Assembly (NCBI GenBank): GCA_043819135.1
Contig: JBDRFG010000106.1
Location: 67,612 to 131,611, forward strand
Length of the DNA stretch: 64,000 nt
Reading direction: 5' to 3'
Source of the DNA: Candidatus Eiseniibacteriota bacterium
GTDB taxonomy: Bacteria > Joyebacterota > Joyebacteria > Joyebacterales > Joyebacteraceae
Of this stretch, positions 2,098 through 43,205 are shown piece by piece. The notes below the pieces were generated by a model. The model made no database searches. It had not been told where the DNA came from and worked only from the letters and a program-made list of their open reading frames with translations. The translations under genes were made by a program, and so were the position numbers. Positions within the stretch are counted from its first letter, which is position 1; every line of letters begins with the position of its first letter.

Positions 2098-3384
2098 ATG
2101 AAGTCCAGCGCCAGGATAGTCCTGCTCGTGGCCATCGCGGTCCACGTCCTGTTCCTGGCGTCGCTGGTAGACCCCGGCCACTTCCTGAACCCGCTCTTCC
2201 CCGAGGGCATGCACAACCTGGGCGAGGGGCAGGGAAGCGACTTCTACGCGTTCTACCAGGCCGGGCGCTACGTCCTCGACAACGAGAGCATCTACACGAG
2301 ACCGATGGAGGATCCCGACCGCGTCGTACCGTACGCGTACTTCTACCGCTACCTTCCCTTCGTGGCGTACTCGATCGGTGTCGCGGCCAACGCCGTGGCG
2401 CCGAAGGTCGCCTACTGGATCTGGGTCGCTCTCATCGAGCTTGTCCTCGCGCTCTGCATAGTCGGCACGAGGGGAATCACGCGGGACGCGACCCTGTTCG
2501 CGCATCTCACGGCGATGTGGCTCATGTACACTCCGTTCTACATGGAGCAGTACATGGGGCAGCTCACCTTCGCCACGGCCGCGATGTCCTTCGGCTTCGC
2601 CGTGATGCACCTCCGGGGGAGGGCGCTCGCGGCGGACGGCTGGTGGTGGGCCAGCGTTGTCATCAAGCACCTGTCGGTGCTCTACGTTCCCATCCTGCTC
2701 AGGCTGCGGAAGTACCGGACCATCGCCATCGCGGTGCTGCTGCTGCTCGTGACCACCATTCCCTACTTCCTGCTCCGCGGTCACGGAACCGGCCATTTCA
2801 CTCACGACAACTTCAGCCTGAACCTCGATCCGTATACGGGGAACATGGGCGCCGTCGCCTTCTTCATGGTCCTCAAGGAACGCTTCTTCCCGCTGGCGTC
2901 ACAGGCGTTCGGGCAGCTCGGTCCGATCAAGCTGTCCATCACGCGACTGGGCGTGGGGATGGTCATGGGCGTGCCCGTGGTCGCCAGCCTGTGGGTGACC
3001 TTCCGGCGCAGGCCGTTCGACTTCCTCGAGTCCTTCGCGCTCTGGACCATGGTGTACTTCTTCGTGTTCAGAGAGGTGTGGGAGTACCACTACGTGCTCC
3101 TGATACCCGTCTTCGTGCTGCTCTACGCCAGGACGCGAGCGCGCGTGCTCTGGTTCATCTTCGCGCTCACCGCGGCTCCTACGCTGTTCATTCTCTACGA
3201 TGTTCCCGGCGCGAACCCCTCAGAAGCGTGGGAAGCGTGGAGCGCGTTCGAGCACGTCCTCAACCACGGCTTCAAGCTGATACCCGTGGTGTGGCTCTTC
3301 GTGTGGGTGGCCGCGGGCTACCTTCGCCGCCACTCGAAACTCGTGGAATCCCGGATGGACACCGGAGTCGACCTGGTCTTCTAG
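2098..3384 (+). CDS. polytopic integral membrane protein (DUF2029 / GT87-like glycosyltransferase or polymerase candidate)
   Basis: 428 aa with about 10-12 hydrophobic helices. GGGGAGG RBS 8 nt upstream of the ATG. Sits inside the glycosyltransferase cluster. Confidence 0.5.
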   Translation: MKSSARIVLLVAIAVHVLFLASLVDPGHFLNPLFPEGMHNLGEGQGSDFYAFYQAGRYVLDNESIYTRPMEDPDRVVPYAYFYRYLPFVAYSIGVAANAVAPKVAYWIWVALIELVLALCIVGTRGITRDATLFAHLTAMWLMYTPFYMEQYMGQLTFATAAMSFGFAVMHLRGRALAADGWWWASVVIKHLSVLYVPILLRLRKYRTIAIAVLLLLVTTIPYFLLRGHGTGHFTHDNFSLNLDPYTGNMGAVAFFMVLKERFFPLASQAFGQLGPIKLSITRLGVGMVMGVPVVASLWVTFRRRPFDFLESFALWTMVYFFVFREVWEYHYVLLIPVFVLLYARTRARVLWFIFALTAAPTLFILYDVPGANPSEAWEAWSAFEHVLNHGFKLIPVVWLFVWVAAGYLRRHSKLVESRMDTGVDLVF

Positions 3385-5507: not shown

Positions 5508-6089
5508 CCCGGCCGACCCCGCCCGACTTGTCAGCCGCGCCTGCTCCAGCTGACGCGGCCGACCCGGACCGACCTTCCGACGCGGCAGACGATGCGAAGC
5601 GCCACAGTCTTGCAAAATGAAACAACCTGTGCGCCAGTTGCGTGCCCGCGTTCGCTGGAACCTCCGCCCCGCGACCTGCCGACCGCTCGACAATCCGCCC
5701 CATGAAGACCCTCTGGACCCCACAGAACCGCTCTGAGCCGCTCGCGTTGCCCTTTGGGTGTCTGGGCACGCTTCCTGCTCTATGTGCCCCCGACAACTAA
5801 ATAGGGACATGCGTCCCCTGCCATGCTCGTGAGCAGTCACCAGGTCGTGGGCTGATCCCCATACCCAGAGAATGAGTTCTACGCTACCTGATTGCACGGC
5901 ATGAAAGCGGGGGACGCGTTATTGTACCCCTGTCTCGTCCGGTCTCGCGTGCCGCAGGAGCCGCCGGGACCGGCAGGAGCCGACCACGGCCCGAGAGCCC
6001 GGACCGTCGCACCTCCAGGCGTCCTGCCGGCCGCACGAGCGTTTCGCTCCACCTGCCAGACCATCCCCAGATAGCCGCTTGCGTTTCCG

Positions 6090-6118
6090 TTGACAGCATT
6101 TGTGCCCGGTGCTAGACT
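6090..6118 (+). promoter_or_regulatory. sigma70-like promoter candidate for the BMC operon (TTGACA-N17-TAGACT)
   Basis: TTGACA at 6090-6095, 17-nt spacer, TAGACT at 6113-6118, about 95 nt upstream of the pduL start. Lies in an otherwise gene-free 700 bp region. Confidence 0.4.
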
Positions 6119-6213
6119 CTCGCTCATCCGGGGGCGGAAGCCGCGCTCGTCTGTGGAGTTGCGGCATCTGGTTCCCAAATTTGGTTTACCTCTGAGGTCC
6201 GTGAGGACGCCGG

Positions 6214-6951
6214 ATGGACGATGTCGAAAGGCTGGCTTCTGAGGTCCTGAGAAGGCTCAAGGGCAACGAACCCCGCGGCGGCGAGTCCGGTGTGGGCAAG
6301 CCTCAGGCGGACCAGTCGCGCGACGGCGGGTCGCCGAGCAGAGACGAGAGGGGCGGCCAGACGGGGGCCGGCGAAACTTCCTCGGGTATCCCGGTGACCG
6401 TGTCCGGGCGCCACATGCACATATCGAGGGGCGTCCTGGACCGGCTGTTCGGGGAGGGGTTCCAGCTGACCACGCTTCGCGACCTCGGTCAGCCCGGGGA
6501 ATTCGCCTCCGAGCAGACGGTGACCGTCGTTGGACGCTCGATGAAGGCCCTGGAGCGCGTGCGCGTGCTGGGGCCCGTGCGCACCTACACGCAGGTCGAG
6601 CTGTCCGGAACCGATGCCGTGCGCCTCGGGATCGAACCACCCGTAAGGAGATCCGGCGACCTCGTCGGAAGCGAGGGTGTCACGGTGGTCGGGCCGTCCG
6701 GATCGGTGCAGCTCAAAGAGGGCGCGATCATGTCGACCCGTCACGTTCACATGACCGAGCGTGACGCGAGGGAGTACGGGGTCGCCGACGGCGATCTTGT
6801 AAGAATGCGTTTCCCCGGCGACCGGGCAGTGGTTCTCGAGAAGGTACTGATCCGCGTCGGCAAGAGCGCGGCGCTTGAGCTTCACGTGGATACCGACGAT
6901 GCCAACGCCGCCGGAGTGCGGCTGCCGATGACCGTGAAGATCCTCAGCTGA
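6214..6951 (+). CDS. pduL: phosphate propanoyl/acyl-transferase PduL (BMC-associated phosphotransacylase) with N-terminal encapsulation peptide and long Gly/Ser/Arg linker
   Basis: Two PduL-type repeats with GRHMHIS and TRHVHMT metal-binding motifs and a C-terminal HVDTDDANAAG. N-terminal amphipathic helix VERLASEVLRRLKG followed by about 40 aa of low-complexity linker. GAGGA RBS. Confidence 0.85.
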   Translation: MDDVERLASEVLRRLKGNEPRGGESGVGKPQADQSRDGGSPSRDERGGQTGAGETSSGIPVTVSGRHMHISRGVLDRLFGEGFQLTTLRDLGQPGEFASEQTVTVVGRSMKALERVRVLGPVRTYTQVELSGTDAVRLGIEPPVRRSGDLVGSEGVTVVGPSGSVQLKEGAIMSTRHVHMTERDAREYGVADGDLVRMRFPGDRAVVLEKVLIRVGKSAALELHVDTDDANAAGVRLPMTVKILS

Positions 6952-6987
6952 TCTGACGGGCTCGTGCATATGGGGGAGGTGTGACAC

Positions 6988-7263
6988 TTGTCAGGCCTTG
7001 CACTGGGAATGGTCGAAACTAAGGGCGTGATAGGACTCATCGAGGCCACCGACGCCATGGTGAAGACCGCGAACGTTGTGTTGACGAAGTACGAGAAGAT
7101 AGGTGGGGGCTACGTAACGACGCTGGTCAGAGGCGACGTTGGCGCGGTCAAGGCGGCGGTGGCGGCGGGTGCGGAGGCCGCGCAGAAGATCGGCGAGTTG
7201 GTCTCCTACCACGTGATACCGGCGCCTCACGAAATGCTGGAGGATATACTGCTCAAACCGTAG
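6988..7263 (+). CDS. BMC-H shell protein (PduA/EutM-like hexamer, Pfam00936)
   Basis: [25 protein letters not shown]...[17 protein letters not shown] is a canonical BMC domain. TTG start with GGGGGAGG RBS 8 nt upstream. Confidence 0.9.
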
Positions 7264-7344
7264 GCGGTCCGACAGCGTCGTTTCACAGCTGACACTGCTG
7301 GAAGTGCTGTGACGGACAACACAATTCGGTCACAGGAGGAAGCA

Positions 7345-7641
7345 ATGGGCGAAGCCCTTGGTATGATCGAAACGCGCGGTTTCATTGGCATGGTCGAGGC
7401 ATCCGACGCCATGGTCAAGGCCGCCCAGGTCACGCTGGTGCACTACGAGAAGGTGGGCGGAGGCTATGTCACCGCTCTCGTCAGAGGCGACGTGGCGGCG
7501 GTCAGGGCTGCCGTGGACGCCGGAACCGCCGCGGCCAGCAAGGTCGGCGAGCTGATCTCCACGCACGTCATCCCGAAGCCTCATGAGAGCCTCGAGGACG
7601 TGCTGCCCATCGGCAAGACGTCCAGAGCGAAGGCCAAGTAG
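7345..7641 (+). CDS. BMC-H shell protein (PduA/EutM-like) with short basic C-terminal tail
   Basis: [29 protein letters not shown]... canonical BMC domain. AGGAGG RBS 7 nt upstream of the ATG at 7345; the track ORF starts earlier at 7309. Confidence 0.9.
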
Positions 7642-7743
7642 CGGCGACTCCGTGTGCCTTCGGGACGGCCCGGGCGCGGCGGCTCGACAGGCGCCGCTTT
7701 AGCCATCCGATGTCCGTGTGCCCCAACGGGGCGAGAGCGAGCT

Positions 7744-8031
7744 ATGAATCTCGGTAAAGTCGTAGGGACCGTGGTCTCGACCAGGAAGGACGAGAAGCTG
7801 GTCGGCACGAAGCTTCTGGTCGTCAGACAGATTGATCCTTCGGGAAGCGAGACAGGGACGTTCGTCGTGGCCGTGGATGCGGTCGGCGCCGGAACGGGGG
7901 AGGTCGTGCTGTACGCCAGCGGAAGCTCCGCGAGGCAGACGACGCTGACCCAGGACAGGCCCGCCGACGCGGTCATCATGGCGATCGTCGACGCGATCGA
8001 GATCGGGGGCGAGGTACTCTACACCAAGTAG
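7744..8031 (+). CDS. BMC-P vertex pentamer protein (EutN/CcmL/PduN family)
   Basis: [27 protein letters not shown]...[13 protein letters not shown] matches the EutN_CcmL fold. Internal ATG at 7744 of the longer track ORF. Confidence 0.85.
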
Positions 8032-8134
8032 CCTCATTGCGGCGATCCCGGATGGGGAGGAGGTCCGATCAGCCTGTGGGCGCGGAGCTTCTGTCTCTGT
8101 GGGATCGCTGCACTGTATCGGGGACGGCCAGTCC

Positions 8135-9568
8135 ATGGGCAAGGACGAAGCGGGAATCGGAGCGATAGTCGACCAGGTGGTCGGTGAGCTCAAGGCGAAG
8201 GGAGTGCAGGTCGCGGCTCCCGAGTGCCCGCTGCCGTTCGACGGCAGGGGCATCCTTGCGGACATCGACAGCGCCGTGTCGGCGGCGCAGCGCAGCCTGG
8301 CGGAATCGCGCGAAATGCCCATGGCCATCAGGGAGGCCGCGGTCGCTTCGATGAGACGCGCCATACTCTCGAACCTCGACCGCCTCTCGAGAATGGCCGT
8401 GGACGAGACCGGCCTGGGCCGTTTCGAGGACAAGGTGCGCAAGAACCGCCTGGTCGCGACCAACACGCCGGGCACGGAGGACCTCCGACCGATCGCCTAC
8501 TCGGGCGATCACGGCCTCACTCTCGTCGAGCGCGCCCCCTACGGCATCATCGGTTCGATCACCCCTTCCACGAACCCGACCGAGACCATCATCGGCAACG
8601 CCATCAGCATGGTAGCGGGCGGCAACGTCGTAGTGTTCAATCCGCACCCGAGCGCCCGAGCGGTCTCGCTGACTTGCATCGATCTGCTCAACCGCGCCAT
8701 CACCGAGGCCGGAGGACCGCGCGCGCTCCTTCTGACGGTGGGTTCACCCTCGATCGAGACCGCGCAGGCTCTGATGGCTCACGAAGGCGTTCGCCTTCTC
8801 GTGGTAACGGGCGGGCCGGGCGTGGTCAGAGCGGCCATGCAGTCGGGCAAGAAGGTGGTGGCCGCCGGACCCGGCAATCCGCCTGTTGTGGTGGACGAGA
8901 CCGCGGACATCGCACGGGCCGGACGCGACATCGTCGCGGGAGCCAGCCTGGACAACAACATCGTCTGCATCGCCGAGAAGGAGATAGTCGCCGTCCGCGG
9001 CATTGTGCCGCAGCTCAAGGATGCCATGACCGACGCCGGAGGCGTCGAGGTCAAAGGCAGGGCCGCGGAGCGCCTGACCGATCTCATCGTGGAGAAGGAC
9101 GCGGGGAAAGGCAAGCCATCGAGCCTCAACCGCCGCCTCATAGGCAAGGACGTCAGCGTCATCCTCGAGGAGGCCGGACTGCCGTGCCCGGCGGGCTCCC
9201 GCCTCGCCTTCTTCGACGCCGACAGCTCGCACCCGCTTGTGTGGTCCGAGCAGATGATGCCGGTCATTCCGCTGGTGACAGTCGAGACCGCCGACGAGGC
9301 GATCAGCTTCGCCAAAGAGGTCGAGCGCGCATTCGGTCACACCGCGGTGATGCACTCGAGGAACATCGCCAATCTCTCGAGAATGGCCAGGCTCATGGAC
9401 GTCTCCATATTCGTCAAGAACGGCCCGTCCTACGCGGGCCTCGGGTTCGGTGGAGAGGGATTCACCACCTTCACGATCGCAAGCCCGACGGGAGAGGGTC
9501 TCACGCGGGCATCAACGTTCACGCGCGAGCGCCGGTGCACGCTCGTCGACTACTTCCGCATAATCTAG
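8135..9568 (+). CDS. CoA-acylating aldehyde dehydrogenase (PduP/EutE-like) with N-terminal encapsulation peptide
   Basis: ALDH-superfamily features with a catalytic Cys region (NNIVCIAEKE) and EutE-like length. N-terminal amphipathic helix GIGAIVDQVVGELKAKG ahead of the catalytic domain. Located in the BMC operon. Confidence 0.85.
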   Translation: MGKDEAGIGAIVDQVVGELKAKGVQVAAPECPLPFDGRGILADIDSAVSAAQRSLAESREMPMAIREAAVASMRRAILSNLDRLSRMAVDETGLGRFEDKVRKNRLVATNTPGTEDLRPIAYSGDHGLTLVERAPYGIIGSITPSTNPTETIIGNAISMVAGGNVVVFNPHPSARAVSLTCIDLLNRAITEAGGPRALLLTVGSPSIETAQALMAHEGVRLLVVTGGPGVVRAAMQSGKKVVAAGPGNPPVVVDETADIARAGRDIVAGASLDNNIVCIAEKEIVAVRGIVPQLKDAMTDAGGVEVKGRAAERLTDLIVEKDAGKGKPSSLNRRLIGKDVSVILEEAGLPCPAGSRLAFFDADSSHPLVWSEQMMPVIPLVTVETADEAISFAKEVERAFGHTAVMHSRNIANLSRMARLMDVSIFVKNGPSYAGLGFGGEGFTTFTIASPTGEGLTRASTFTRERRCTLVDYFRII

Positions 9569-9599
9569 CGCGCGCGTAGCGGCCGCGACGGAGGACGAG

Positions 9600-10937
9600 G
9601 TGGCAGGAGCGACGGTCACGGCGATTCAGAAGGCAGGCGTCGTGGGCGCAGGTGGGGGCGGGTTCCCGACTCACATCAAGGCCGCCGCCGGCGCCGACAT
9701 CGTTCTGGCCAACGGCGCGGAGTGCGAACCACTTCTGAGGGCAGACACCGAGCTGATGTCGCGTGATGCCGAGCGGGTCGTCAGGGGACTCTCGATCGTC
9801 CGTGATTCCGTCGGCGCCGGGCGCGCTGTCATAGCGCTCAAGAAGAAGAACGCGCGCGCGCTCAACGCCATCGCGGGGGCGCTGTCCAGTGACAGCGGAG
9901 TAGAACTTCTGCCCCTGTCCAACGTGTACCCTGCCGGGGACGAGTTCCTTCTGGTGTTCGAGGCGACCGGACGCGTCGTGCCCGAGGGAGGCATACCGCT
10001 TGACGTGGGCGTGATCGTCAACAACGTGACGACGCTGGCCCAGGTAACAGACGCTGTCGAGGGACGTCCCGTCAGCGAAAAGATGGTCACGGTCCAGGGA
10101 GAGGTCGTCGCCCCTGGAACGTTCGTCACTCCGATAGGAACGTCCATCAATGAGCTGATCGCGAGCGCCGGCGGCGCAACGTGCGAAGACAGCGCGGTCG
10201 TGATAGGAGGCCCCATGATGGGGCACCTGATGCTCGACGGCGGTCAACCGACCACGAAGACCGTGGCCGGCGTCATCGTTCTTCCGGCCGACCATCGTCT
10301 CGTATCGTCAATGAGCTCCAGAGAGGCCCAGGTGCTCCGGCTCGCCAGAGCGGCGTGCTGTCAGTGCATGGCCTGCACCGAACTCTGTCCGCGTGCGCTC
10401 CTCGGCCACGGCCTCGAGCCTCACCGGACTGTGCGAGCCATCCAGTACGCCGAATTCCCGGAGGACCACAGGCACATAACCTCCGCATACCTCTGTTGCG
10501 AGTGCGGCATGTGCGAGCTCTTCGCGTGCCCGCTGGGAATCCAGCCCCGACGGATACTGGCTGACCTCAAGGCGGAACTGGTGCGGCGAGGCGTCCCGAA
10601 CCCGCACCGAAGAACGGACCTGTCGCCAGACGACGTGAGGGAGTACAGACAGATACCGACGGCGCGGCTCACGCGGAGACTGGGACTGGAGAGATACGAC
10701 GTTGACGCGCCGCTTCGCCCGGAACCGCTCTGTCCCTCGCGAGTGACGCTACGGATGAAACAGCACGTCGGCGAACCCGCCGTTCCGGTCGTCACGCCCG
10801 GCCAGACGGTCCTTAAGGGAGACGTCGTTGGAGAGGCCGCGGAGGACGTCGTGAGCGCAAGGGTGCACGCGAGCATCAGCGGCGTGGTCGAATCGGCAAG
10901 CGAGGACGCCGTGGTGATCGCGTCGGCGGACGCCTGA
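9600..10937 (+). CDS. PduS-like RnfC-family Fe-S flavoprotein (two 4Fe-4S ferredoxin motifs; NAD(H)/FMN-binding N-domain)
   Basis: N-terminal GVVGAGGGGFPTHIKAA (RnfC/NuoF-like nucleotide-binding domain). CxxCxxCxxxCP motif (CCQCMACTELCP) and a second Cys cluster (CCECGMCELFACP). Size and architecture match PduS. GTG start with GGAGGA RBS. Confidence 0.75.
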   Translation: MAGATVTAIQKAGVVGAGGGGFPTHIKAAAGADIVLANGAECEPLLRADTELMSRDAERVVRGLSIVRDSVGAGRAVIALKKKNARALNAIAGALSSDSGVELLPLSNVYPAGDEFLLVFEATGRVVPEGGIPLDVGVIVNNVTTLAQVTDAVEGRPVSEKMVTVQGEVVAPGTFVTPIGTSINELIASAGGATCEDSAVVIGGPMMGHLMLDGGQPTTKTVAGVIVLPADHRLVSSMSSREAQVLRLARAACCQCMACTELCPRALLGHGLEPHRTVRAIQYAEFPEDHRHITSAYLCCECGMCELFACPLGIQPRRILADLKAELVRRGVPNPHRRTDLSPDDVREYRQIPTARLTRRLGLERYDVDAPLRPEPLCPSRVTLRMKQHVGEPAVPVVTPGQTVLKGDVVGEAAEDVVSARVHASISGVVESASEDAVVIASADA

Positions 10938-10969
10938 CGAAACACGGGTGAAAGGGGAGGTACCGGTCG

Positions 10970-11518
10970 TTGAGAGAGGCAATCGGACTCATCGAGACAG
11001 TGAGCATCGCTATCGGCATCAGCGTGACCGATGAGATGGCCAAGACCGCCGATATCGAGGTGCTCGAATCGACGGCCATCTGTCCCGGCAAGTACATGGT
11101 CCTCATCGCGGGCGACGTGTCGTCCGTCGAGTCCTCGCTCAACCGCGGCATCGAGACGGGGGGGGACGTCGTGGTCGACACGCTCTTCATACCGCACGTC
11201 CACCCGCAGGTCTTCCCGGCGATCCTCGGAGCGACCGAGGTAGGGGACCTCCGTGCCCTTGGAGTCGTCGAGACGTTCACGGTCGCCTCGTCCATTCTGG
11301 CGGCAGACGCCGCCGCGAAGGCGGCGGGCGTCACACTGCTCGAGATACGACTGGCCAAGGGACTGGGTGGGAAGGCGTTCTTCACCATGATGGGAGAAGT
11401 GTTCGAGGTCGAGGCGGCCATGGAGGCCGCGCTTCGGGTGGCCAAGAGCGGCGGCAACCTCGTGAGGAGCGTCGTTATTCCCAGGCCGCACGAAAAGCTG
11501 CGTGCCAGCATACTGTAG
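10970..11518 (+). CDS. pduT: BMC-T shell protein, PduT-like tandem BMC-domain trimer with conserved Fe-S-ligating Cys
   Basis: Two tandem BMC domains (AIGLIETVSIA... and LGVVETFTVA...). The ICPGKYMVLIAGDVSSVESSL motif aligns with PduT, including the Cys that ligates the 4Fe-4S cluster. TTG start with AAAGGGGAGG RBS. Confidence 0.85.
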   Translation: MREAIGLIETVSIAIGISVTDEMAKTADIEVLESTAICPGKYMVLIAGDVSSVESSLNRGIETGGDVVVDTLFIPHVHPQVFPAILGATEVGDLRALGVVETFTVASSILAADAAAKAAGVTLLEIRLAKGLGGKAFFTMMGEVFEVEAAMEAALRVAKSGGNLVRSVVIPRPHEKLRASIL

Positions 11519-11542
11519 TCCCGCGGCGACGGAGGCAATTCG

Positions 11543-11812
11543 TTGCATCTTTGCAGAGTAATCGGCACGGTCTGGGCCACTCAGAAGGTCGACACCCTTA
11601 CGGGGTATCGCATGCTGGTCGTCCAGCCGCTCAGTCACGACCTCACGGAGAAGGGAACTCCAGTAGTCGCAGTGGACACGGTGAGCGCGGCGCCAGGGCA
11701 GCTGGTCTACATCGTTAAGTCGAGGGAGGCCGCCAAGGCCCTCGAGGAGCCTTTCAATCCGGTGGACGCGGCAATAGTGGGGATCGTCGACCACCTGCGC
11801 ACGTCGGCCTGA
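11543..11812 (+). CDS. BMC-P vertex protein (EutN/CcmL family), second paralog
   Basis: MHLCRVIGTVWATQKVDTLTGYRMLVVQP...VDTVSAAPGQLVYIV. TTG start with GGAGG RBS. Confidence 0.85.
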   Translation: MHLCRVIGTVWATQKVDTLTGYRMLVVQPLSHDLTEKGTPVVAVDTVSAAPGQLVYIVKSREAAKALEEPFNPVDAAIVGIVDHLRTSA

Positions 11813-11832
11813 TCGCGGCCCGGAGGTTATCC

Positions 11833-12105
11833 ATGTTCATTGCCAGGGTCATCGGCGAGGTCGTCTCGACGACAAAGCACCCTGCGCTACGGGGCAGAAA
11901 ACTCCTCGTGATCGAGAAGCTCACGGAGATGGGCGAGCCAACTGGAGACTCACAGCTGGCGGTCGACTCGGTCGACGCGGGGGAGGGGGACACGGTGCTC
12001 GTCATGGACGAGGGCAGTTCGGCCGCGCTGGTCACCGAGATGGACAATCCGCCCATCCGTACGGTGATCGTGGGCGTCGTCGACAGCGTGGACATCGAGG
12101 AGTAG
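11833..12105 (+). CDS. BMC-P vertex protein (EutN/CcmL family), third paralog
   Basis: MFIARVIGEVVSTTKHPALRGRKLLVIEK...VDSVDAGEGDTVLV. GGAGG RBS. Three BMC-P paralogs are typical of PVM-type loci. Confidence 0.85.
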   Translation: MFIARVIGEVVSTTKHPALRGRKLLVIEKLTEMGEPTGDSQLAVDSVDAGEGDTVLVMDEGSSAALVTEMDNPPIRTVIVGVVDSVDIEE

Positions 12106-12110
12106 CTGAT

Positions 12111-12923
12111 TTGCGTTCCGAGTTCGAGGCGAGAAGAGAGATCGTCGAGATAGGCAGGAGGCTATGGGAACGCGGCTACGTCGCGGCGAACGACGGCAAC
12201 ATCAGCGCGAGACTGGGCGACAGGATCCTAGTGACGCCGACCGGGCTGTCAAAGGGGTTCCTGAAGCCTTCCGACATGGTCGTCGTCTCTCCATCCGGCG
12301 AGAAGTTGTCGGGAGAGCTGGACCCCACGTCCGAGCTCCCGATGCACCTGGCCGTCTACAGGGCGAGGGCCAACGTCAGCGCGGTCGTTCACGCGCATCC
12401 GCCGAAGGCGACCGGCTTCGCCGTCGCGGGCGTACCACTCGCGCAATGCGTGCTTCCGGAGGTCATACTCACCCTGGGCGAGGTGCCGCTGGCCGGATAC
12501 GCGACTCCGTCGACCGAGGAGGTAGCGCGGTCGGTCAGTGAGTTCATCCCGCGCTACAACGCGATACTCCTGAGCAACCACGGCGTCCTCACGCTCGGGC
12601 GCGACCTGTCGCAGGCCTACTACCGCATGGAGACCGTTGAGCACTTCGCAGAGATAACGCTCGCTGCGAAGGCTCTGGGCGGGCCGTCGCCGCTCTCGAG
12701 CGACGACGTGCGAAAGCTCCTGAGCGTGCGGGACAAGCTCGGCCTGGAAACCGTGGCCGAGTGCACTGACTGCGGAGCATGCGCGGGCGCTTCGGCACCG
12801 GGCGGCGGTTCTACACCGGGCGGCGTCCCTCAGAAGGACGCCGAACCAGACGAAGAAGAGGTGGTCCGGGCCGTCCTGGCTCGGCTTGGCAAACTCATGG
12901 ATGAGAAAGGTGACCGGAGATGA
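12111..12923 (+). CDS. class II aldolase/adducin-family aldolase (L-fuculose-/L-rhamnulose-1-phosphate aldolase-like) with C-terminal extension (Cys motif + linker + amphipathic encapsulation helix)
   Basis: Class II aldolase features: the AVVHAHPP metal-binding His cluster and the VTPTGLSKG phosphate-binding loop. About 50 extra C-terminal residues: CTDCGAC, then a Gly/Ser/Pro linker, then EEEVVRAVLARLGKLMDE. TTG start with GAGGAG RBS. Confidence 0.8.
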   Translation: MRSEFEARREIVEIGRRLWERGYVAANDGNISARLGDRILVTPTGLSKGFLKPSDMVVVSPSGEKLSGELDPTSELPMHLAVYRARANVSAVVHAHPPKATGFAVAGVPLAQCVLPEVILTLGEVPLAGYATPSTEEVARSVSEFIPRYNAILLSNHGVLTLGRDLSQAYYRMETVEHFAEITLAAKALGGPSPLSSDDVRKLLSVRDKLGLETVAECTDCGACAGASAPGGGSTPGGVPQKDAEPDEEEVVRAVLARLGKLMDEKGDRR

Positions 12924-13813
12924 CACGTAAAGGATGCATCTGGGGATGGCTCATCGGCGTGCTCGCGCTGCTCGTCATCTTCCTCGTGACGATAGTGACC
13001 ATAGAATCGCTGCTGGGTCAGCAGCTGTCGCTCCCGTCCTACGGGGCGCGTGTCGGGCTCATCAGGGTGGAGGGGAGTATCTACGACTCCAGGCAGATCA
13101 TAGCGGACCTGGAGCAGATGGTCGGCAATCCGGGTATCAGCGCCATCGTCCTGAGGGTCGACAGCCCCGGTGGCGGAGTGGCCGCATCGCAGGAGATATT
13201 CGAGTACATCCGGGACGTCCAGGAGCAGGACGTACCGCTGGTCGTGTCGATGGGCTCCGTGGCCGCCTCCGGAGGTTACTACATAGCGTGCACGGCGGAC
13301 ACGATCGTCGCCAATCCAGGCACCCTGACGGGCAGCATCGGCGTCATCATGTCGTTCACCAATCTTGAGGAGCTGTTCGGGAAGCTCGGGATGGACTTCG
13401 AGGTCATAAAGAGCGGCAGATTCAAGGATGTGGGCTCCATGAGCAGGGAGATGACCGACGATGAACGGGAACTCCTGCAGGAGACCATCGACGACATACA
13501 CGCGCAGTTCATCGAGGCGGTTGCTGCGGGCAGGGGAATGGAGTACGACGCTGTCGCCGCGTTGGCCGACGGACGCATCTTCTCCGGCCGTCAGGCGCTC
13601 GAGGTCGGGCTCGTGGACCAGCTGGGGACTCTGGAGGACGCCGTGAGCATCGCGGCCCGCAGGGGCGGGATCGAGGGCGAACCCCGCGTGCAGGAGCCCG
13701 TCAGGCGTCAGCGGTTGACGCTCTGGGACCTTCTTTCGGGCGCCGCGTCGAGACTCCTTCCGCCCGAGGCCTCAAGCCTCGGTGCTCACTACATGTACAG
13801 GCCCTCCAAGTGA
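12920..13813 (+). CDS. sppA: signal peptide peptidase SppA (S49 family, 36K type)
   Basis: N-terminal TM helix and S49 motifs (SMGSVAASGGYYIA with the Ser nucleophile; GVIMSF). ATGA start/stop overlap with the aldolase gene. Confidence 0.8.
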   Translation: MTRKGCIWGWLIGVLALLVIFLVTIVTIESLLGQQLSLPSYGARVGLIRVEGSIYDSRQIIADLEQMVGNPGISAIVLRVDSPGGGVAASQEIFEYIRDVQEQDVPLVVSMGSVAASGGYYIACTADTIVANPGTLTGSIGVIMSFTNLEELFGKLGMDFEVIKSGRFKDVGSMSREMTDDERELLQETIDDIHAQFIEAVAAGRGMEYDAVAALADGRIFSGRQALEVGLVDQLGTLEDAVSIAARRGGIEGEPRVQEPVRRQRLTLWDLLSGAASRLLPPEASSLGAHYMYRPSK

Positions 13814-37159: not shown

Positions 37160-37942
37160 GTGCTCCCGCTACGGTCCCGGTCGCATTCAGTCGGACACAC
37201 CTGGCAGGTCCTGAGCGCGGCGAGGGACGCAGTCCTTTCGTTCCTGTTCCCGGACAGGTGTGTGGCCTGCGAAACGGCCCTCGGAGCCTCACGACGGCAC
37301 CTCTGTTCCGTGTGCGAGTCCGGACTGAGTGCTCGAAACGGCTCGCTGGCACTGCCCGGGCTCGGTGACGGGCCCGGGTGGCCGCGGGCGAGCACGCGGG
37401 CTTTCTACGCCCTGGAGTTCGAGGGGGTGACGCGCGCGATGGTTCACGCGCTCAAGTACGAGGGCAGAACCTCGCTGGCCGGCGACCTCGCCGCCATCGC
37501 CCTTCCCGCAGCACTCGGTGCGTGCGACGCGCCGCCGGACTTCGTGACGCCGGTTCCGCTTCATCCGCTCCGCCTCAGAGAGAGGGGCTTCAATCAGAGT
37601 GAGCTTCTGGCCGCCCGGCTGGCGGCCGCGATGAGCGTGCCCGTTCGAACGACGCTCAAGAGAGTCCTGCACACGCCGGCTCAGGCGCGCCTGCCCAGGC
37701 GTCAGAGGCTCGCGATGCCGTCCTCGGCCTTCCGCGAGACCGGGGACGCCGCGGGCCTCGGCCGCGTTCTGCTCGTGGACGACGTCGTGACCACCGGTGC
37801 GACCCTCGCCGCTGCCTCGCTGGCCCTTCTCCGCGCCGGAGCGGGGGAGGTCATCTGCTTCGCGCTGGCAGGAACTCCATCGAGAGAGCCAGCGGGGCGC
37901 GCCTCGCCGAAAGCGGTTGACTGTGCTCGGAGCGAGCACTAG
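37160..37942 (+). CDS. comFC: ComF-family phosphoribosyltransferase-domain protein
   Basis: N-terminal Cys4 zinc ribbon (CVACE...CSVCE); C-terminal PRTase motif LLVDDVVTTGATL. GTG at 37160 chosen as start; start uncertain. Confidence 0.65.
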   Translation: MLPLRSRSHSVGHTWQVLSAARDAVLSFLFPDRCVACETALGASRRHLCSVCESGLSARNGSLALPGLGDGPGWPRASTRAFYALEFEGVTRAMVHALKYEGRTSLAGDLAAIALPAALGACDAPPDFVTPVPLHPLRLRERGFNQSELLAARLAAAMSVPVRTTLKRVLHTPAQARLPRRQRLAMPSSAFRETGDAAGLGRVLLVDDVVTTGATLAAASLALLRAGAGEVICFALAGTPSREPAGRASPKAVDCARSEH

Positions 37943-38006
37943 AATCCGGAGTTCGGGCGCAGGAACCAGGGCGCGCACTAAGCGAACAGCGAGGCGGGAG
38001 GTCAAG

Positions 38007-39062
38007 ATGAAGGTCGCGGTTCTCACCGGTGGCGGAGACTGCCCCGGGCTGAATGCCGTCATCAGGGCGATCGTACGGCGTACCATAGGGAAGTACGGGG
38101 GGGAGGTCGTCGGGTTCCGGTACGGTTGGGCCGGTGTCATCGAGAACAACCAGATGCCGCTCGGACTCGAGCAGGTCTCTGGTATCCTCCCGAGAGGCGG
38201 GACCATCCTCGGAACGTCGCGGACGAATCCATACAGGGTCGAGGGAGGATTCGAGGCGATCAAGAGGACCGTCGAACAGGAGAAGCTCGACGGTTTGATC
38301 GCGATCGGCGGTGAGGACACGCTGGGTGTTGCGCACAAGCTCTACCGAGAAGGCCTGCCGATCGTCGGCGTGCCCAAGACCATCGACAACGACATCAACG
38401 GTACGGACTTCACGTTCGGCTTTGACACCGCCGTTCACATCGCGACCGAGGCCATCGACCGACTGCACACCACGGCCGAGTCGCACAACCGCGTCGTCGT
38501 GGTAGAGGTGATGGGACGCCACACCGGGTGGATCGCCGTGAAGGCGGGCATAGCCGGAGGAGCGGACCTGATCCTCATCCCCGAGATCCCGTTCCGGATG
38601 CAGGACGTGTTCGAGACTATCAAGAAGCGTCACGCCCGCGGGAAGAACTTCAGTATCGTCGTGGTGGCGGAGGGCGCGAAGCTGCCCGGCGGTGCGCACG
38701 AGAAGGACGAGGAGGAGGGCGAGCTCGTTCTCCAGCAGGGGAGCGCCGACGCCTTCGGCCACGTGCGGCTGGGGGGCATAGGCAATGCACTCGCCACGGC
38801 CATCGAGCAGGAGACCGGGTTCGAAACGAGGGTCACGGTGCTCGGCTACACGCAGCGCGGCGGGACCCCGACGGCGTTCGACCGCGTGCTCGGCACGAGA
38901 TTCGGCGTGGTCGCAGCGGATCTCGTCCATGCGAAGGAGTTCGGCAAAATGGTCAGCCTTCACGGTGACAAGGTGATACCGATCGAGATGTCTCATGCCA
39001 TCGAACGCCTGAAGGTCGTCGATACGGAGCTCTACGAGGTGGCGAGGACTTTCTTCGGGTAG
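38007..39062 (+). CDS. pfk: 6-phosphofructokinase, probably pyrophosphate-dependent (PfkA family, Asp/Lys at the ATP-vs-PPi specificity positions)
   Basis: MKVAVLTGGGDCPGLNAVIRA. IGGEDT (Asp where ATP-PFKs have Gly104) and PKTIDNDI (Lys where ATP-PFKs have Gly124). Confidence 0.85.
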   Translation: MKVAVLTGGGDCPGLNAVIRAIVRRTIGKYGGEVVGFRYGWAGVIENNQMPLGLEQVSGILPRGGTILGTSRTNPYRVEGGFEAIKRTVEQEKLDGLIAIGGEDTLGVAHKLYREGLPIVGVPKTIDNDINGTDFTFGFDTAVHIATEAIDRLHTTAESHNRVVVVEVMGRHTGWIAVKAGIAGGADLILIPEIPFRMQDVFETIKKRHARGKNFSIVVVAEGAKLPGGAHEKDEEEGELVLQQGSADAFGHVRLGGIGNALATAIEQETGFETRVTVLGYTQRGGTPTAFDRVLGTRFGVVAADLVHAKEFGKMVSLHGDKVIPIEMSHAIERLKVVDTELYEVARTFFG

Positions 39063-39161
39063 TCCGTAAACGGGACGTGCGCTGGCGGAGAACGCACAAC
39101 TCACGACCGAGTCGAAGCGGGCCGGGGCCTCGGTGGACCGGCGCGCGGGAACGGAGACACA

Positions 39162-40085
39162 ATGGGGCTTTTGACCAACAACGACCTGATGGTGCCGGCC
39201 AGAGTCGGCGGTTATGCCGTAGGCGCGTTCAACACGAGCAATCTGGAGACGACGAGGGCCATATTCGAGGCCGCCCAGGAGCTCGGGTCTCCCGTTATCG
39301 TTGCGACGTCGCAGTCGGCGATCACATACGCGGGCTACGACAACATTCGCTGCATGGTCGAGAACATGGCCAGAGCCACCGGTGTGCGGGCGTCGCTTCA
39401 CCTTGATCACGGGACCGACCCCGCCGTCATAGAGCAGTGCCTCGAGCACGGGTGGACCTCCATAATGATCGACGGATCGCACCTGCCTTTTGAGGAGAAC
39501 ATCGCGGCGACGAAGAAGGTCGTCGAGATGTGTCGCCCACGCGGAGTATCCGTCGAGGGAGAGCTGGGACGGCTGATGGGCGTAGAGGACGAGATCTCCG
39601 TGTCAGCCGACCAGGCCATCTACACCGACCCGGACCAGGCGGTGGAATTCGTCCAGCGCTCAGGTTGCGATTCTCTCGCCATCGCAATAGGGACCTCGCA
39701 CGGCGCCTACAAGTTCAAGGCGCAGCCGAAGCTCGCGATCGAGCGGCTGCAGAAGATCGCGGCGACGGTCGCCGTGCCGCTCGTGCTGCACGGGGCGTCC
39801 GCCGTGCCGCCGGACGTGCTCGAGCTGGCCACTCGCTACGGAGCCCAGCTGCCGGGCGCGAAGGGTGTCCCACCCGAGAGCATCCGGGAGGCCATCGGAG
39901 GCGGGATATCCAAGGTCAACATCGACACTGATCTCAGACTCGCGTTCACGGGCCGTGTGCGGCAATTCCTGGCGGAGAGCCCGGAAGCGTTCGATCCGCG
40001 GAAGATACTGTCCGCAGCGATCGACGGAATGAAGGACGTCATCAGATCGAAGATCGAGCTGTTCGGCTCGGGCGGGAAGGCCTAG
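39162..40085 (+). CDS. fba: class II fructose-1,6-bisphosphate aldolase
   Basis: Zn-dependent FBA/TBP aldolase pattern (HLDHG, GxxHG). 307 aa. Located in the glycolytic operon. Confidence 0.85.
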   Translation: MGLLTNNDLMVPARVGGYAVGAFNTSNLETTRAIFEAAQELGSPVIVATSQSAITYAGYDNIRCMVENMARATGVRASLHLDHGTDPAVIEQCLEHGWTSIMIDGSHLPFEENIAATKKVVEMCRPRGVSVEGELGRLMGVEDEISVSADQAIYTDPDQAVEFVQRSGCDSLAIAIGTSHGAYKFKAQPKLAIERLQKIAATVAVPLVLHGASAVPPDVLELATRYGAQLPGAKGVPPESIREAIGGGISKVNIDTDLRLAFTGRVRQFLAESPEAFDPRKILSAAIDGMKDVIRSKIELFGSGGKA

Positions 40086-40093
40086 GAGGACAC

Positions 40094-41098
40094 ATGGGGT
40101 TCAAGTTCGCGATCAACGGTTTCGGGAGGATCGGCAGGCTCGTTCTGCGCGTGGCGTCGGAGATGGACGGGTTCGATTGCGTGGCGGTGAATGACCTCAC
40201 GGACGCGGGAACAATGGCACACCTCCTCAAGTACGACTCGGTGCACGGGAAGTTCGGCGCGGAGATCTCGCACGACGACAGCTCAATAACGGTGAACGGC
40301 GACAGGTTCGCGTTCCACTCCGAGCGCGACCCCGCGAATCTGCCGTGGGGAGACCTCGGCGTCGACGTAGTCATCGAGTCGACGGGACACTTCAGGGACA
40401 GACCCGGGGCAGGCAAGCACCTGAGCGCCGGCGCGCGCAAGGTGATGATCTCGGCCCCCGCCAAGGACCCTGACGTGATGATAGTGATGGGCGTGAACGA
40501 TCAGGACTACGATCCTGCCAAGCATCACATCATCTCGACTGCGTCCTGCACGACCAACTGCGCAGCTCCGATGATCAAGGTCCTTCATGAGAGCTTCGGC
40601 GTCGTCAAGGGCATCATGACGACAGTGCACGCCTATACGAACGACCAGAAGATACTCGACTCCCCTCACAAGGACCTCCGACGCGCGAGAGCGGCGGCCG
40701 TCTCGATGATCCCGACGACCACCGGTGCGGCCAAGGCCATCACGACCGTGATGCCTGAGCTCGCCGGGAAGCTCGATGGGCTCGCCGTGCGCGTGCCCAC
40801 GCCCGACGGGTCGCTCGTCGACTTCGTCGTGCAGGTTGAGAAGAAGACCTCGGCCGCGGAGGTCAACGACGCGTTCCGAGCCGCGGCCCAGAGTCCGCCC
40901 CTCACGGGCTTTCTCAAGTACAGTGAGGAGCCGCTCGTGTCGATCGACATCGTCGGAGACCGCCACTCCTGCATCTTCGACAGCCCGTTGACGATCGTCA
41001 TGGACGGTGACATGGTCAAGATCTTTGGCTGGTACGACAACGAGGCCGGCTACGCGTCGCGCATGGTCGACATGATGAAGCTTGTCGCCAGCAGGTGA
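40094..41098 (+). CDS. gap: glyceraldehyde-3-phosphate dehydrogenase
   Basis: INGFGRIGR, ASCTTNC, catalytic Cys. AGGAGG RBS. Confidence 0.95.
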   Translation: MGFKFAINGFGRIGRLVLRVASEMDGFDCVAVNDLTDAGTMAHLLKYDSVHGKFGAEISHDDSSITVNGDRFAFHSERDPANLPWGDLGVDVVIESTGHFRDRPGAGKHLSAGARKVMISAPAKDPDVMIVMGVNDQDYDPAKHHIISTASCTTNCAAPMIKVLHESFGVVKGIMTTVHAYTNDQKILDSPHKDLRRARAAAVSMIPTTTGAAKAITTVMPELAGKLDGLAVRVPTPDGSLVDFVVQVEKKTSAAEVNDAFRAAAQSPPLTGFLKYSEEPLVSIDIVGDRHSCIFDSPLTIVMDGDMVKIFGWYDNEAGYASRMVDMMKLVASR

Positions 41099-41108
41099 GG
41101 TTGTTCCC

Positions 41109-42308
41109 ATGCACAGAAAGCTGCACATCACGGATCTGGACCTTGCGGGGAAGCGCGTTCTGACCCGCGTTGACTTCAACGTGCCCCTGGCTCCTGACGG
41201 CTCCATCACCGACGACACGCGCATCAGGAGAGCCCTCCCGACGATACGATACATCATCGAGTCGGGAGGCAGAGTGGTCCTCGCATCGCACCTGGGCAGG
41301 CCCAAGGGCGAGGTGCTGCGAACGATGAGCCTGAAACCCGCCGCCGCCCGTCTGGCCAAGCTGCTCGAGCGCAAGGTCGTTATGGGACCCGACTGCGTCG
41401 GCGACACGACCGAAGGCCTGGCGGCGCGAATGAGCGACGGCGAGGTGCTGCTGCTCGAGAATCTGCGCTTCCACGCGGGCGAGACGAGCAACGAGAGCGA
41501 CTTCGCGCGGCGTCTGGCCCGTATGGGCGACGTCTACGTCAACGACGCGTTCGGCACCGCGCACAGAGCTCACGCCTCCACCGTCGGGGTCACGGAGTTC
41601 TTCGAACACAGAGCGATGGGCTTCCTGATCGAAACGGAGCTTCTCAATCTCTCGAAGGCCACGGACGACCCCAGGAAGCCGTACGTCGCCATCCTCGGAG
41701 GAGCCAAGGTCTCAGACAAGATAGGTGTCATTGACAACCTGCTTCCCAAGGTCGATGAGCTTCTGATCGGCGGAGGGATGGCCTTCACGTTCCTCGCCGC
41801 GCAAGGGAGGGGAGTGGGCAACTCACTCCTTGAGGAAGACCGGATCGAGACGGCCACCGCGCTTCTGGCAAAGGCTGAGAGATTAGGGAAGACACTGGTG
41901 CTTCCGACCGACATCGTGGTCGCCGACTCGGTCGCCGATGGCGCCGCGTCGAAGACCGTCGACGTCGACAGTATTGAGCCCGGATGGCACGGCGTCGACA
42001 TAGGCCCCCAGACGGTGGACGAGTTCGGGCGGAAGATAGCGCGCGCGCAGACCATCGTGTGGAACGGGCCCCTCGGGGTGTTTGAGATCCCGGCGTTCGC
42101 GGCAGGAACACTGGGCGTCGCACAGGCCGTCGCCGCGAGAACCGACTCGGGCGCGACGAGCATCGTCGGGGGCGGGGATTCCGCCTCGGCGGTCGTGGCG
42201 GCGGGACTCGGGGGACGCATGACGCACATCTCCACCGGAGGCGGCGCTTCCCTGATGTTCCTGGAAGGCAGACCGCTGCCCGCCATAGAGGCACTGTCCG
42301 ACGCGTAG
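41109..42308 (+). CDS. pgk: phosphoglycerate kinase
   Basis: VDFNVP, ASHLGRPKG and GGGASLE motifs. Start trimmed to the ATG at 41109. Confidence 0.95.
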   Translation: MHRKLHITDLDLAGKRVLTRVDFNVPLAPDGSITDDTRIRRALPTIRYIIESGGRVVLASHLGRPKGEVLRTMSLKPAAARLAKLLERKVVMGPDCVGDTTEGLAARMSDGEVLLLENLRFHAGETSNESDFARRLARMGDVYVNDAFGTAHRAHASTVGVTEFFEHRAMGFLIETELLNLSKATDDPRKPYVAILGGAKVSDKIGVIDNLLPKVDELLIGGGMAFTFLAAQGRGVGNSLLEEDRIETATALLAKAERLGKTLVLPTDIVVADSVADGAASKTVDVDSIEPGWHGVDIGPQTVDEFGRKIARAQTIVWNGPLGVFEIPAFAAGTLGVAQAVAARTDSGATSIVGGGDSASAVVAAGLGGRMTHISTGGGASLMFLEGRPLPAIEALSDA

Positions 42309-42392
42309 GAACCGGGACGTGCGCGGAAAGGACTCACCGGGGAAACTCGTATCGATGCCCGTCCGCAAGGACGGCCGAGGAGCGAAAGACCC

Positions 42393-43157: not shown

Positions 43158-43205
43158 CACGCGGCCTGCGCCGATATCCGAGAACGAGTTCTACTGGAGG
43201 AACAG

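Follow-up and report, generated by a model that had tools for sequence, protein, structure and literature searches.

Microcompartments of the candidate phylum Eisenbacteria have been catalogued as type MIC7, which was described, in the 2021 catalogue of bacterial microcompartments (BMCs), from Eisenbacteria and Latescibacteria, with an aldehyde dehydrogenase (AldDH) that carries an N-terminal encapsulation peptide (EP) and is nearest to that of type SPU3, two BMC-H proteins, a triplet of BMC-P proteins and BMC-Ts (PMC8217296). BMC-Ts with a pore cysteine stood beside PduS in two of the six catalogued MIC7 loci (PMC8217296). The functions in the group of MIC7, MIC4 and SPU5 were listed as unknown by the catalogue (PMC8217296). 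The Planctomycetes-Verrucomicrobia (PVM) type was reported to have two BMC-H and three BMC-P proteins, no BMC-T or PduS, and to occur only in the two phyla of its name (PMC8217296); its loci contain acetate kinase, a lactate/malate-dehydrogenase-like gene and a DeoR regulator (PMC4207490). Here, a 64-kb stretch of DNA from Candidatus Eiseniibacteriota (contig JBDRFG010000106.1; hereafter the window) was analysed, and the ten-gene operon on its plus strand at 6214-12923 was compared with these systems. The operon probably encodes a catabolic metabolosome in which an aldolase, the AldDH and the phosphotransacylase PduL are enclosed by the shell and NAD+ is recycled by a PduS/PduT pair, and which belongs to the MIC7/MIC4/SPU5 group and not to PVM.

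The window has about 65% G+C, and the gene call based on G+C at third codon positions (GC3) gave an unbroken run of plus-strand genes over the operon interval. All ten open reading frames (ORFs) were intact with high GC3. The ten contiguous genes listed in a preliminary description of this DNA were real, and every assignment in its gene complement was found again by Pfam. The first gene, 6214-6951, encodes the PduL-type phosphotransacylase (PF06130, 226 bits; NF011652, phosphate propanoyltransferase, 235 bits). It is followed by the genes of two BMC-H hexamer proteins, H1 (6988-7263, 91 aa; PF00936, 99 bits) and H2 (7345-7641, 98 aa; PF00936, 103 bits), the first BMC-P pentamer protein P1 (7744-8031, 95 aa; PF03319, 106 bits) and the CoA-acylating AldDH (8135-9568; PF00171, 118 bits). 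The PduS-like flavo-iron-sulfur protein (MNdh) is encoded at 9600-10937 and the PduT-type tandem-domain trimer (BMC-T^SE) at 10970-11518, the latter with two PF00936 domains (142 bits). Two further pentamer proteins, P2 (11543-11812, 89 aa; PF03319, 100 bits) and P3 (11833-12105, 90 aa; PF03319, 94 bits), precede the class II, Zn-dependent aldolase of 270 aa at 12111-12923 (PF00596, 170 bits), the predicted signature enzyme. P2 and P3 adjoin each other in nearly all related loci, and P3 was assigned also by synteny.

Due to the lengths of homologues and the context of the ribosome-binding site (RBS), the start codons of H2, P1 and AldDH were placed downstream of those of the longest ORFs, which begin at 7309, 7654 and 8099, respectively. 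The H2 ATG at 7345 is preceded by a ggagga RBS, and H2 homologues are 96-98 aa long. The domain of P1 begins only at residue 31 of the long ORF, and its homologues have 96 aa. With the corrected starts the intergenic gaps were, in order, 36, 81, 102, 103, 31, 32, 24, 20 and 5 nt.

Clustered PF00936 and PF03319 genes, by which a metabolosome is recognised, were present: within 6 kb there are genes for three proteins with PF00936, in one case as a tandem, and for three with PF03319. All the shell-protein ORFs matched the BMC domain or EutN/CcmL models, the BMC-P proteins with 94-106 bits. H1 had the non-standard interface motifs KTAN and PAPH and was 79-95% identical in the Eisenbacteria-type loci described below. 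The nearest natural solved structure to H2 was the Haliangium ochraceum (HO) BMC-H HO-5815 (5djb, 129 bits), and that to P1 was the H. ochraceum BMC-P in 5v74 (117 bits; runner-up 76). We propose from these sequences a shell consisting of two BMC-H hexamers, one PduT-type trimer and three BMC-P pentamers.

The second mark of a metabolosome, an EP-carrying AldDH together with a PduL-type phosphotransacylase, was found as well: the NF011927 score of AldDH was 623 bits, the NF011652 score of PduL 235 bits, and both proteins carry amphipathic helices. The N-terminal EP of PduL comprises residues 1-16, DDVERLASEVLRRLKG, and is followed by a low-complexity linker of about 40 residues. The helix was kept in seven homologues with a variable linker, and residues 1-15 had the highest hydrophobic moment of the whole protein. 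The two RHxH motifs are present in PduL. In AldDH, the N terminus IGAIVDQVVGELKAKG forms a helix conserved in ten homologues, after which a variable low-complexity linker leads to the enzyme domain. The ranking by hydrophobic moment singled out the EP of PduL and did not place those of AldDH and the aldolase first; the latter two calls are based on conservation and on the AlphaFold2 helix of the aldolase. EPs have been published on class II aldolases, AldDH and phosphotransacylases (PMC4594438), and the assignment on all three enzymes agrees with that pattern.

The active-site context of AldDH, NNIVCIAEKE, is of the NNxxC type. The NCBIfam subfamily model that AldDH matched, NF011927 (PRK15398), is named 'aldehyde dehydrogenase'. 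Its nearest entries in the Protein Data Bank (PDB) were 5jfl (deposited as 'Aldehyde dehydrogenase', 441 bits), 6gvs and 4c3s, with a range of 425-441 bits for 5jfl and 4c3s. All three are taken here to be microcompartment-associated AldDHs, and 5jfl presumably is the R. palustris protein. The score of 3k9d was far lower, 161 bits.

The catalytic domain of the aldolase occupies residues 9-184 of 270. The C-terminal extension claimed for the aldolase was borne out by Pfam, conservation and AlphaFold2: in its 85 residues a conserved helix comes first and a CxxCGxC motif (residues 218-224) second, after which a disordered linker leads to the conserved amphipathic encapsulation helix at the end (248-266). 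In the AlphaFold2 model the core had a pLDDT above 90, residues 222-243 were disordered and a helix was formed at 248-266.

The PduS-like protein had the domains Complex1_51K (PF01512), SLBB (PF10531), Fer4_17 (PF13534) and, at the C terminus, RnfC_N (PF13375); the score with the rnfC subfamily model was 242 bits. The same set, with the FMN domain first and PF13375 at the C terminus, has been described for PduS/MNdh (PMC11626177). The glycine loop GAGGGGFPTH and two cysteine clusters, CCQCMACTELCP and CCECGMCELFACP, are present. The gene adjoins, with a 32-nt gap, that of the tandem BMC-T, whose Cys38 lies in the pore motif ICPGK (residues 37-41). The nearest PDB entries of this trimer were 3nwg and the PduT structures 3pac and 3n79, with CPGK aligned. 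In the window and the fetched loci, residue 38 was Cys wherever PduS is adjacent (15 of 15 loci), whereas the 60 loci lacking PduS there all had Q, H, S or T.

In 2024, PduS/PduT pairs were shown to carry the electrons of NADH via FMN and three [4Fe-4S] clusters toward the shell exterior and were given the names MNdh and BMC-T^SE; the same study counted 361 loci with the pair but without an alcohol dehydrogenase (PMC11626177). No difference between this module and its putative instance here was detected in the adjacency of the two genes, the CP(G/S)K motif, the AldDH in the locus, the missing alcohol dehydrogenase or the domain order. The earlier remark that kinase, alcohol dehydrogenase and DeoR regulator are missing from the locus held, and none of them was found elsewhere in the window. 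As the published module recycles NAD+, the absence of the alcohol dehydrogenase is expected and is not a gap.

To find relatives, AldDH was scanned against one genome per bacterial or archaeal species (185,579 species genomes) and the best 80 loci were taken; further contigs (L081-L086) were retrieved through aldolase homologues, and gene order was compared by tblastn with all window proteins. The best AldDH matches were metagenome-assembled genomes (MAGs) of Candidatus Eisenbacteria, 83-85% identical, with the same cassette and flanks. The ten-gene order recurred in 14 other fetched loci (L001-L009, L081, L082, L083, L085 and L086), among which L001 is cut after PduS, L008 has no PduL match and L081 is a frameshifted assembly. 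This recurrence is far beyond chance. In the Eisenbacteria-type loci (L002-L006, L009, L081-L083 and L085) the synteny held down to 58% aldolase identity. A second lineage, B (L007 and L086, about 49% G+C), had the identical ten-gene cassette among different neighbours: a molybdopterin oxidoreductase and a RACo-like protein upstream, prolyl-tRNA synthetase downstream, and also UvrC. The flanks of the Eisenbacteria-type loci are glycosyltransferases of polysaccharide synthesis upstream and SppA, HU, flavin reductase, PilZ and FadL downstream. The conservation of the order in two lineages with different flanks indicates that the ten genes are a functional, self-contained unit. The Nitrospinota contig L008 had a variant of the cassette with an RpiR/SIS sugar-phosphate-type regulator upstream. 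The flanks of the Eisenbacteria-type loci were considered also as a clue to the substrate and rejected, since their synteny is conserved and they hold no pathway genes. In the literature, a single paper was found on a link between Eisenbacteria and microcompartments, which deals with a neighbouring phylum, and none useful on the sugar metabolism of Eisenbacteria.

The 71 next-best AldDH loci, outside the cassette lineages, were from Chloroflexota, Marinimicrobia, Calditrichia, Myxococcales, Sericytochromatia and others. Their AldDHs were 51-60% identical, and only the core order H-P1-AldDH-T-P2-P3 was common to them and the cassette. RpiB-DeoC was detected in 43 of the 71 (tblastn with a fused query) and in neither the window nor any cassette locus; Pfam analysis of two of the 71 (L028 and L037) gave a SorC-type regulator and a fused RpiB-DeoC protein. 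SPU3 is described with fused RpiB-DeoC (PMC8217296), and these loci were assigned to the SPU3 pattern from their gene content. In contrast to the present locus, the SPU3-like loci had a trimer without the pore cysteine, no PduS and no PduL match. They usually contain a gene for a protein of about 206 aa without a Pfam match, possibly the BMC-Tdp of SPU3 in the catalogue, which is absent here. What the present locus adds to them is PduL, PduS and the aldolase.

From these comparisons, the best fit in the catalogue is MIC7, with an enzyme set resembling MIC4 and SPU5. In the terms of the catalogue, we place the locus in the MIC7/MIC4/SPU5 group, as a probable Eisenbacteria member whose shell and AldDH are related to SPU3 and HO, and not in PVM. 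With MIC7 as catalogued it shares the phylum, the N-terminal-EP AldDH nearest to SPU3, two BMC-H, the P triplet and BMC-Ts (PMC8217296), here with the pore cysteine beside PduS. As to AldDH, the next-nearest loci were of the RpiB-DeoC type, for which the label SPU3 was derived from gene content. Compared with the description of MIC7, the locus adds PduL and the EP-tagged aldolase, both conserved in the cassette, and the satellite BMC-Tdp of MIC7 was not in the window (PMC8217296). MIC4 is catalogued with AldDH, phosphotransacylase, PF00596 aldolase and acetate kinase (PF00871) in its main locus, a PduS/PduT(Cys) pair and a green/grey/orange P triplet; of these enzymes the acetate kinase is absent from the window, the others are present, and so are a PduS/PduT pair and a P triplet. 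The AldDH of MIC4 is reported as nearest to MUF2/MUF3, and the type occurs in other phyla (PMC8217296). SPU5 has an AldDH, a C-terminal-EP aldolase and PduS/PduT as well, and no phosphotransacylase is mentioned for it (PMC8217296). The Latescibacteria loci that Axen et al. (2014) called SPU-like share AldDH, PduL, PduS and a class II aldolase but have acetate kinase and an RpiB-like gene, both absent here (PMC4207490). The domains that mark SPU types, PF01791 (DeoC) and PF02502 (RpiB), were found by tblastn in neither the window nor the cassette loci. The preliminary description had expected a distinct BMC locus subtype outside the PVM phyla; as the relatives are of SPU3 and HO type and Eisenbacteria loci are already catalogued as MIC7, no new subtype was found.

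The reaction sequence that we infer for this metabolosome would begin with the cleavage of a ketose-1-phosphate by the Zn-dependent class II aldolase to dihydroxyacetone phosphate (DHAP) and a short aldehyde. The CoA-acylating AldDH would convert the aldehyde to acyl-CoA with the formation of NADH, and PduL would then form the acyl-phosphate and recycle CoA. In place of an alcohol dehydrogenase, NAD+ would be regenerated by the PduS-like MNdh, the electrons passing over the two [4Fe-4S] clusters of PduS to a [4Fe-4S] cluster held by Cys38 at the PduT-type pore and so outside the shell. DHAP and the acyl-phosphate would be used by cytosolic enzymes, the kinase being encoded elsewhere.

The aldolase retains the three Zn-binding His and the catalytic Glu of E. 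coli FucA in an alignment with 30% identity, which makes class II aldolase chemistry plausible. Judged from the sequence, a ketose-1-phosphate giving DHAP and a short aldehyde is the predicted class of substrate. By analogy with the characterised systems, L-fuculose- or L-rhamnulose-1-phosphate cleaved to lactaldehyde is our best guess for the route, a tentative one to which we give somewhat less than even chances. Several results weigh against it. Fucose or rhamnose isomerase, kinase and transporter as well as acetate kinase were not found in the window. Tyr113 and Phe131, presumably residues of the aldehyde pocket of E. coli FucA, are replaced by Glu117 and Pro133, both invariant in the clade, and this hints at a substrate or a proton relay other than those of FucA. 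The aldolase reached no equivalog cut-off in NCBIfam: the best partial scores were 134 bits for 3-oxo-tetronate-4-phosphate decarboxylase (cut-off 250) and 131 bits for ribulose-1-phosphate aldolase (cut-off 300), and the FucA models gave 120 (NF005302, cut-off 264) and 89 bits (TIGR01086, cut-off 400). Naming the function by similarity in NCBIfam or the PDB was tried and rejected, as FucA, 5-deoxyribulose-1-phosphate aldolase, ribulose-1-phosphate aldolase and OtnC-like enzymes were nearly tied and the PDB scores were flat.

A look-up by the exact sequence of the aldolase yielded no public contig. The named relatives of the aldolase were from Eisenbacteria (61-70% identity), then from Vicinamibacterales, Bacteroidota and Firmicutes (54-56%). 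One Bacteroidota aldolase, 56% identical (L084, 10001-10786), has an EP-like C-terminal helix and follows two Gfo/Idh/MocA oxidoreductase genes; no shell genes were found within 10 kb, so that a satellite locus may be present there. A short EP-less class II aldolase, 45% identical, is encoded in L037 (12547-14530), an SPU3-like locus of Calditrichia; it lies between the BMC-P pair and a pyrimidine-nucleoside phosphorylase gene, an arrangement that is possibly a clue to the substrates of the aldolase clade.

The CxxCGxC motif in the aldolase tail (CTDCGAC, 12762-12782) lies about 35 residues past the aldolase domain, in a stretch of low confidence in the AlphaFold2 monomer model. It was present in 105 of the 120 closest aldolase homologues, and the linker before the aldolase EP has been described as unconserved (PMC4594438). 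A coupling of the motif to PduS was considered and rejected: it occurs in EP-bearing aldolases without PduS (L010 and L033) and is absent from L007, which has PduS. It goes instead with the encapsulation extension and is absent from the short EP-less aldolases of L016, L037 and L074.

A serious rival to the fucose or rhamnose route is an SPU-like organelle in which the class II aldolase replaces RpiB-DeoC and splits pentulose- or deoxypentulose-1-phosphates from nucleosides or related detritus, such as ribulose-1-phosphate, 5-deoxyribulose-1-phosphate or xylulose-1-phosphate, to DHAP and glycolaldehyde or acetaldehyde. The closest affinities of the shell and AldDH are to SPU3-like loci that have RpiB-DeoC, an aldolase relative stands beside the pyrimidine-nucleoside phosphorylase gene in one of these (L037), and the RpiR/SIS regulator of the Nitrospinota variant is of the sugar-phosphate type. 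The haloarchaeal ribulose-1-phosphate aldolase model scored slightly above the FucA models, and the pocket residues of FucA are not kept. The PDB entry 6btd, deposited as 'Fuculose phosphate aldolase' and taken by us to be a 5-deoxyribulose-1-phosphate aldolase, outscored E. coli FucA. However, the family scores of the aldolase are far under the cut-offs and so close to each other that they do not discriminate, and ribose-1-phosphate isomerase, nucleoside phosphorylase and kinase were found in neither the cassette nor the window. Moreover, the experimentally characterised BMC pathways with a class II aldolase, PVM and GRM5, act only on fucose and rhamnose (PMC4207490, PMC4594438). We consider the pentulose route less likely than not, though worth keeping in mind beside the fucose or rhamnose route.

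The preliminary description had called the locus PVM-like. A PVM-type organelle would cleave fuculose- or rhamnulose-1-phosphate and oxidise lactaldehyde over lactyl-CoA to lactyl-phosphate, the chemistry described for PVM (PMC4207490). The label was justified in part: a class II aldolase with a C-terminal EP, AldDH, a PduL-type phosphotransacylase, two BMC-H and three BMC-P are shared with the PVM locus of Erbilgin et al. (2014) (PMC4207490, PMC8217296). The sequence from aldolase over aldehyde and acyl-CoA to acyl-phosphate is probably common to both, and many homologues of the aldolase have been named 'L-fuculose-phosphate aldolase' by JGI. The label failed in the phylum, the shell composition and the ancillary genes. 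The nearest loci are the Candidatus Eisenbacteria MAGs and then SPU3-like loci, with no Planctomycetes or Verrucomicrobia title among the best 80 AldDH loci, and PVM as catalogued is confined to those phyla and lacks the BMC-T and PduS that are found here (PMC8217296). Acetate kinase, a recycler of the lactate/malate-dehydrogenase type and DeoR were all absent from the locus and from the window. The shell proteins come closest to those of the HO shell; PVM was compared by description, which sets it apart by gene order, nearest relatives and a first BMC-P in the 'purple' and not the 'green' clade (PMC8217296). The catalogue's PVMlike is a Firmicutes type related to GRM5 (PMC8217296), and it does not correspond to the locus either: the nearest loci were of Eisenbacteria type and SPU3-like, with no Firmicutes title among the 80.

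The BMC-P triplet and the EP-tagged class II aldolase had been regarded as the hallmark of PVM. P triplets are reported in SPU1-7, HO, ACI, FRAG, MIC3, MIC4, MIC7 and MUF2, and PF00596 aldolases in ACI, HO, MIC3, MIC4, MUF2, MUF3, SPU5 and GRM5 (PMC8217296, Suppl. Data 2). Because both are spread over many catalogued types, including the aldolase with its C-terminal EP, they are not a hallmark of PVM. A PVM-type organelle is unlikely here.

For the PduS-like protein, a role as cobalamin reductase serving a B12-dependent enzyme, with NAD+ recycled otherwise, was weighed against electron export. A corrin reductase was reportedly the original biochemical role of Salmonella/Citrobacter PduS (PMC2982820). 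This role was already disfavoured, and it is very unlikely for the present protein: no B12-dependent enzyme or B12-related gene was found within the cassette in the fetched loci, PduS is strictly coupled to the Cys-pore trimer, and the 2024 study argues, with in vitro support, for NADH oxidation and electron export (PMC11626177). The missing kinase, alcohol dehydrogenase and regulator, and the suggestion of Axen et al. that some aldolase loci are fragments (PMC4207490), might bring to mind a locus in decay, or a remnant, which has ceased to form an organelle. This is hardly credible given ten intact ORFs with high GC3, retained catalytic and cofactor motifs and a cassette kept in two lineages with protein identities as low as about 50%.

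The gap upstream of PduL is 706 nt long and contains a sigma-70-like site at 6090-6118 on the plus strand, found in a consensus scan (TTGACA-17-TAGACT, with TG before the -10 element). The block 6075-6175 around it was 83-88% conserved in related loci, and the site is a candidate promoter of the operon. At gathering thresholds Rfam gave no match in the whole window, which indicates that no known riboswitch controls the operon. At the other end, the gene of an S49 (SppA-like) peptidase (12920-13813, plus strand; PF01343, 179 bits) overlaps the aldolase stop by 4 nt (ATGA). Transcription therefore probably continues beyond the reported end of the operon, and the peptidase is probably co-transcribed with it. 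In all Eisenbacteria-type loci the peptidase gene comes next after the cassette, a place taken in lineage B by prolyl-tRNA synthetase, which likewise overlaps the aldolase stop. Apparently, transcription that runs on from the operon into a housekeeping gene is tolerated. The peptidase is a lineage-specific neighbour outside the organelle gene set.

The rest of the window is of housekeeping character, with EF-P, AccC, FtsK, MiaB, MreBCD-PBP2-RodA, a glycolytic cluster and tRNA-Leu. The glycolytic cluster (PFK, class II FBA, GAPDH, PGK, TPI and SecG at 37797-43646 on the plus strand, then tRNA-Leu(GAG), to 43800) would take up DHAP from the microcompartment, yet it lies 25 kb downstream and is ordinary. 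Three sizeable plus-strand ORFs with coding-like GC3 had no Pfam match (2098-3384, 48171-49196 and 49297-50679); a homologue of the first has a GT87 match in the related contigs L082 and L085.

Between a GT2 glycosyltransferase gene and PduL, a conserved structured RNA of about 107 nt is located at 5811-5917 on the plus strand, within a conserved block at 5792-5923. Its only Rfam match, below the threshold, was 6S/SsrS (32.6 bits; gathering score 46.4), with 88 central positions of the model replaced by 7 nt. It is thus not a 6S RNA by the RF00013 model and resembles only the 5' and 3' conserved parts, for which reason it is called mini-6S-like here. The block had 80-93% nucleotide identity in all Eisenbacteria-type loci, also across cassette loci with proteins of only 55-65% identity, and its core about 80% in lineage B. 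Of the 34 pairs predicted by RNAalifold, nine had compensatory changes. Folded as a single sequence, the RNA gave an irregular hairpin of considerable length (z = -4.7). No variation was seen in the stretch CCAGGTCGTGGGCTGATC; there is a conserved GACAACTGAATAG upstream, and beyond the closing stem comes a U-rich tail.

The covariance model of this RNA, R1, matched once in the window and once in each of the 12 cassette loci covering this region, with no further match in 1.5 Mb; the positive sources, 13 of 87, all have the PduL-type cassette. It may be the divergent 6S RNA of the organism, which common ancestry has kept beside the operon, or else an RNA that is tied to the cassette. In two Eisenbacteria MAGs the RNA is set apart from the PduL promoter block by an insertion of 1.6 kb (L001 6450-8050 and L004 6430-8050). 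The 345-aa ORF in it, whose N terminus is hydrophobic and which has repeats of the GGG(M/L)YC type, looks unrelated. As the insertion parts them, RNA and operon are separable.

The RNA and the aldolase cysteine motif are the sole elements of the locus that might lead to novelty. It is rather unlikely, in our estimation, that the RNA is dedicated to the microcompartment instead of being a housekeeping 6S and that CxxCGxC binds a metal or Fe-S cluster, organising the cargo core or joining the PduS/PduT path. If it were so, these features together with the non-FucA pocket (Glu117 and Pro133) would mark out an organelle whose substrate has gone unrecognised and which is under an additional, new level of control.

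The locus leaves the current understanding of microcompartments unchanged, and its cofactor logic has already been explained in the recent literature. It represents a well-preserved, compact aldolase-type metabolosome, contained in one ten-gene operon, from the poorly known candidate phylum Eisenbacteria, and a clean natural case of a metabolosome without an alcohol dehydrogenase that would rely on electron export by PduS/PduT. Due to this compactness and reliance it is a candidate for reconstitution in another host and could help to find the substrate on which the MIC7/MIC4/SPU5 group acts.

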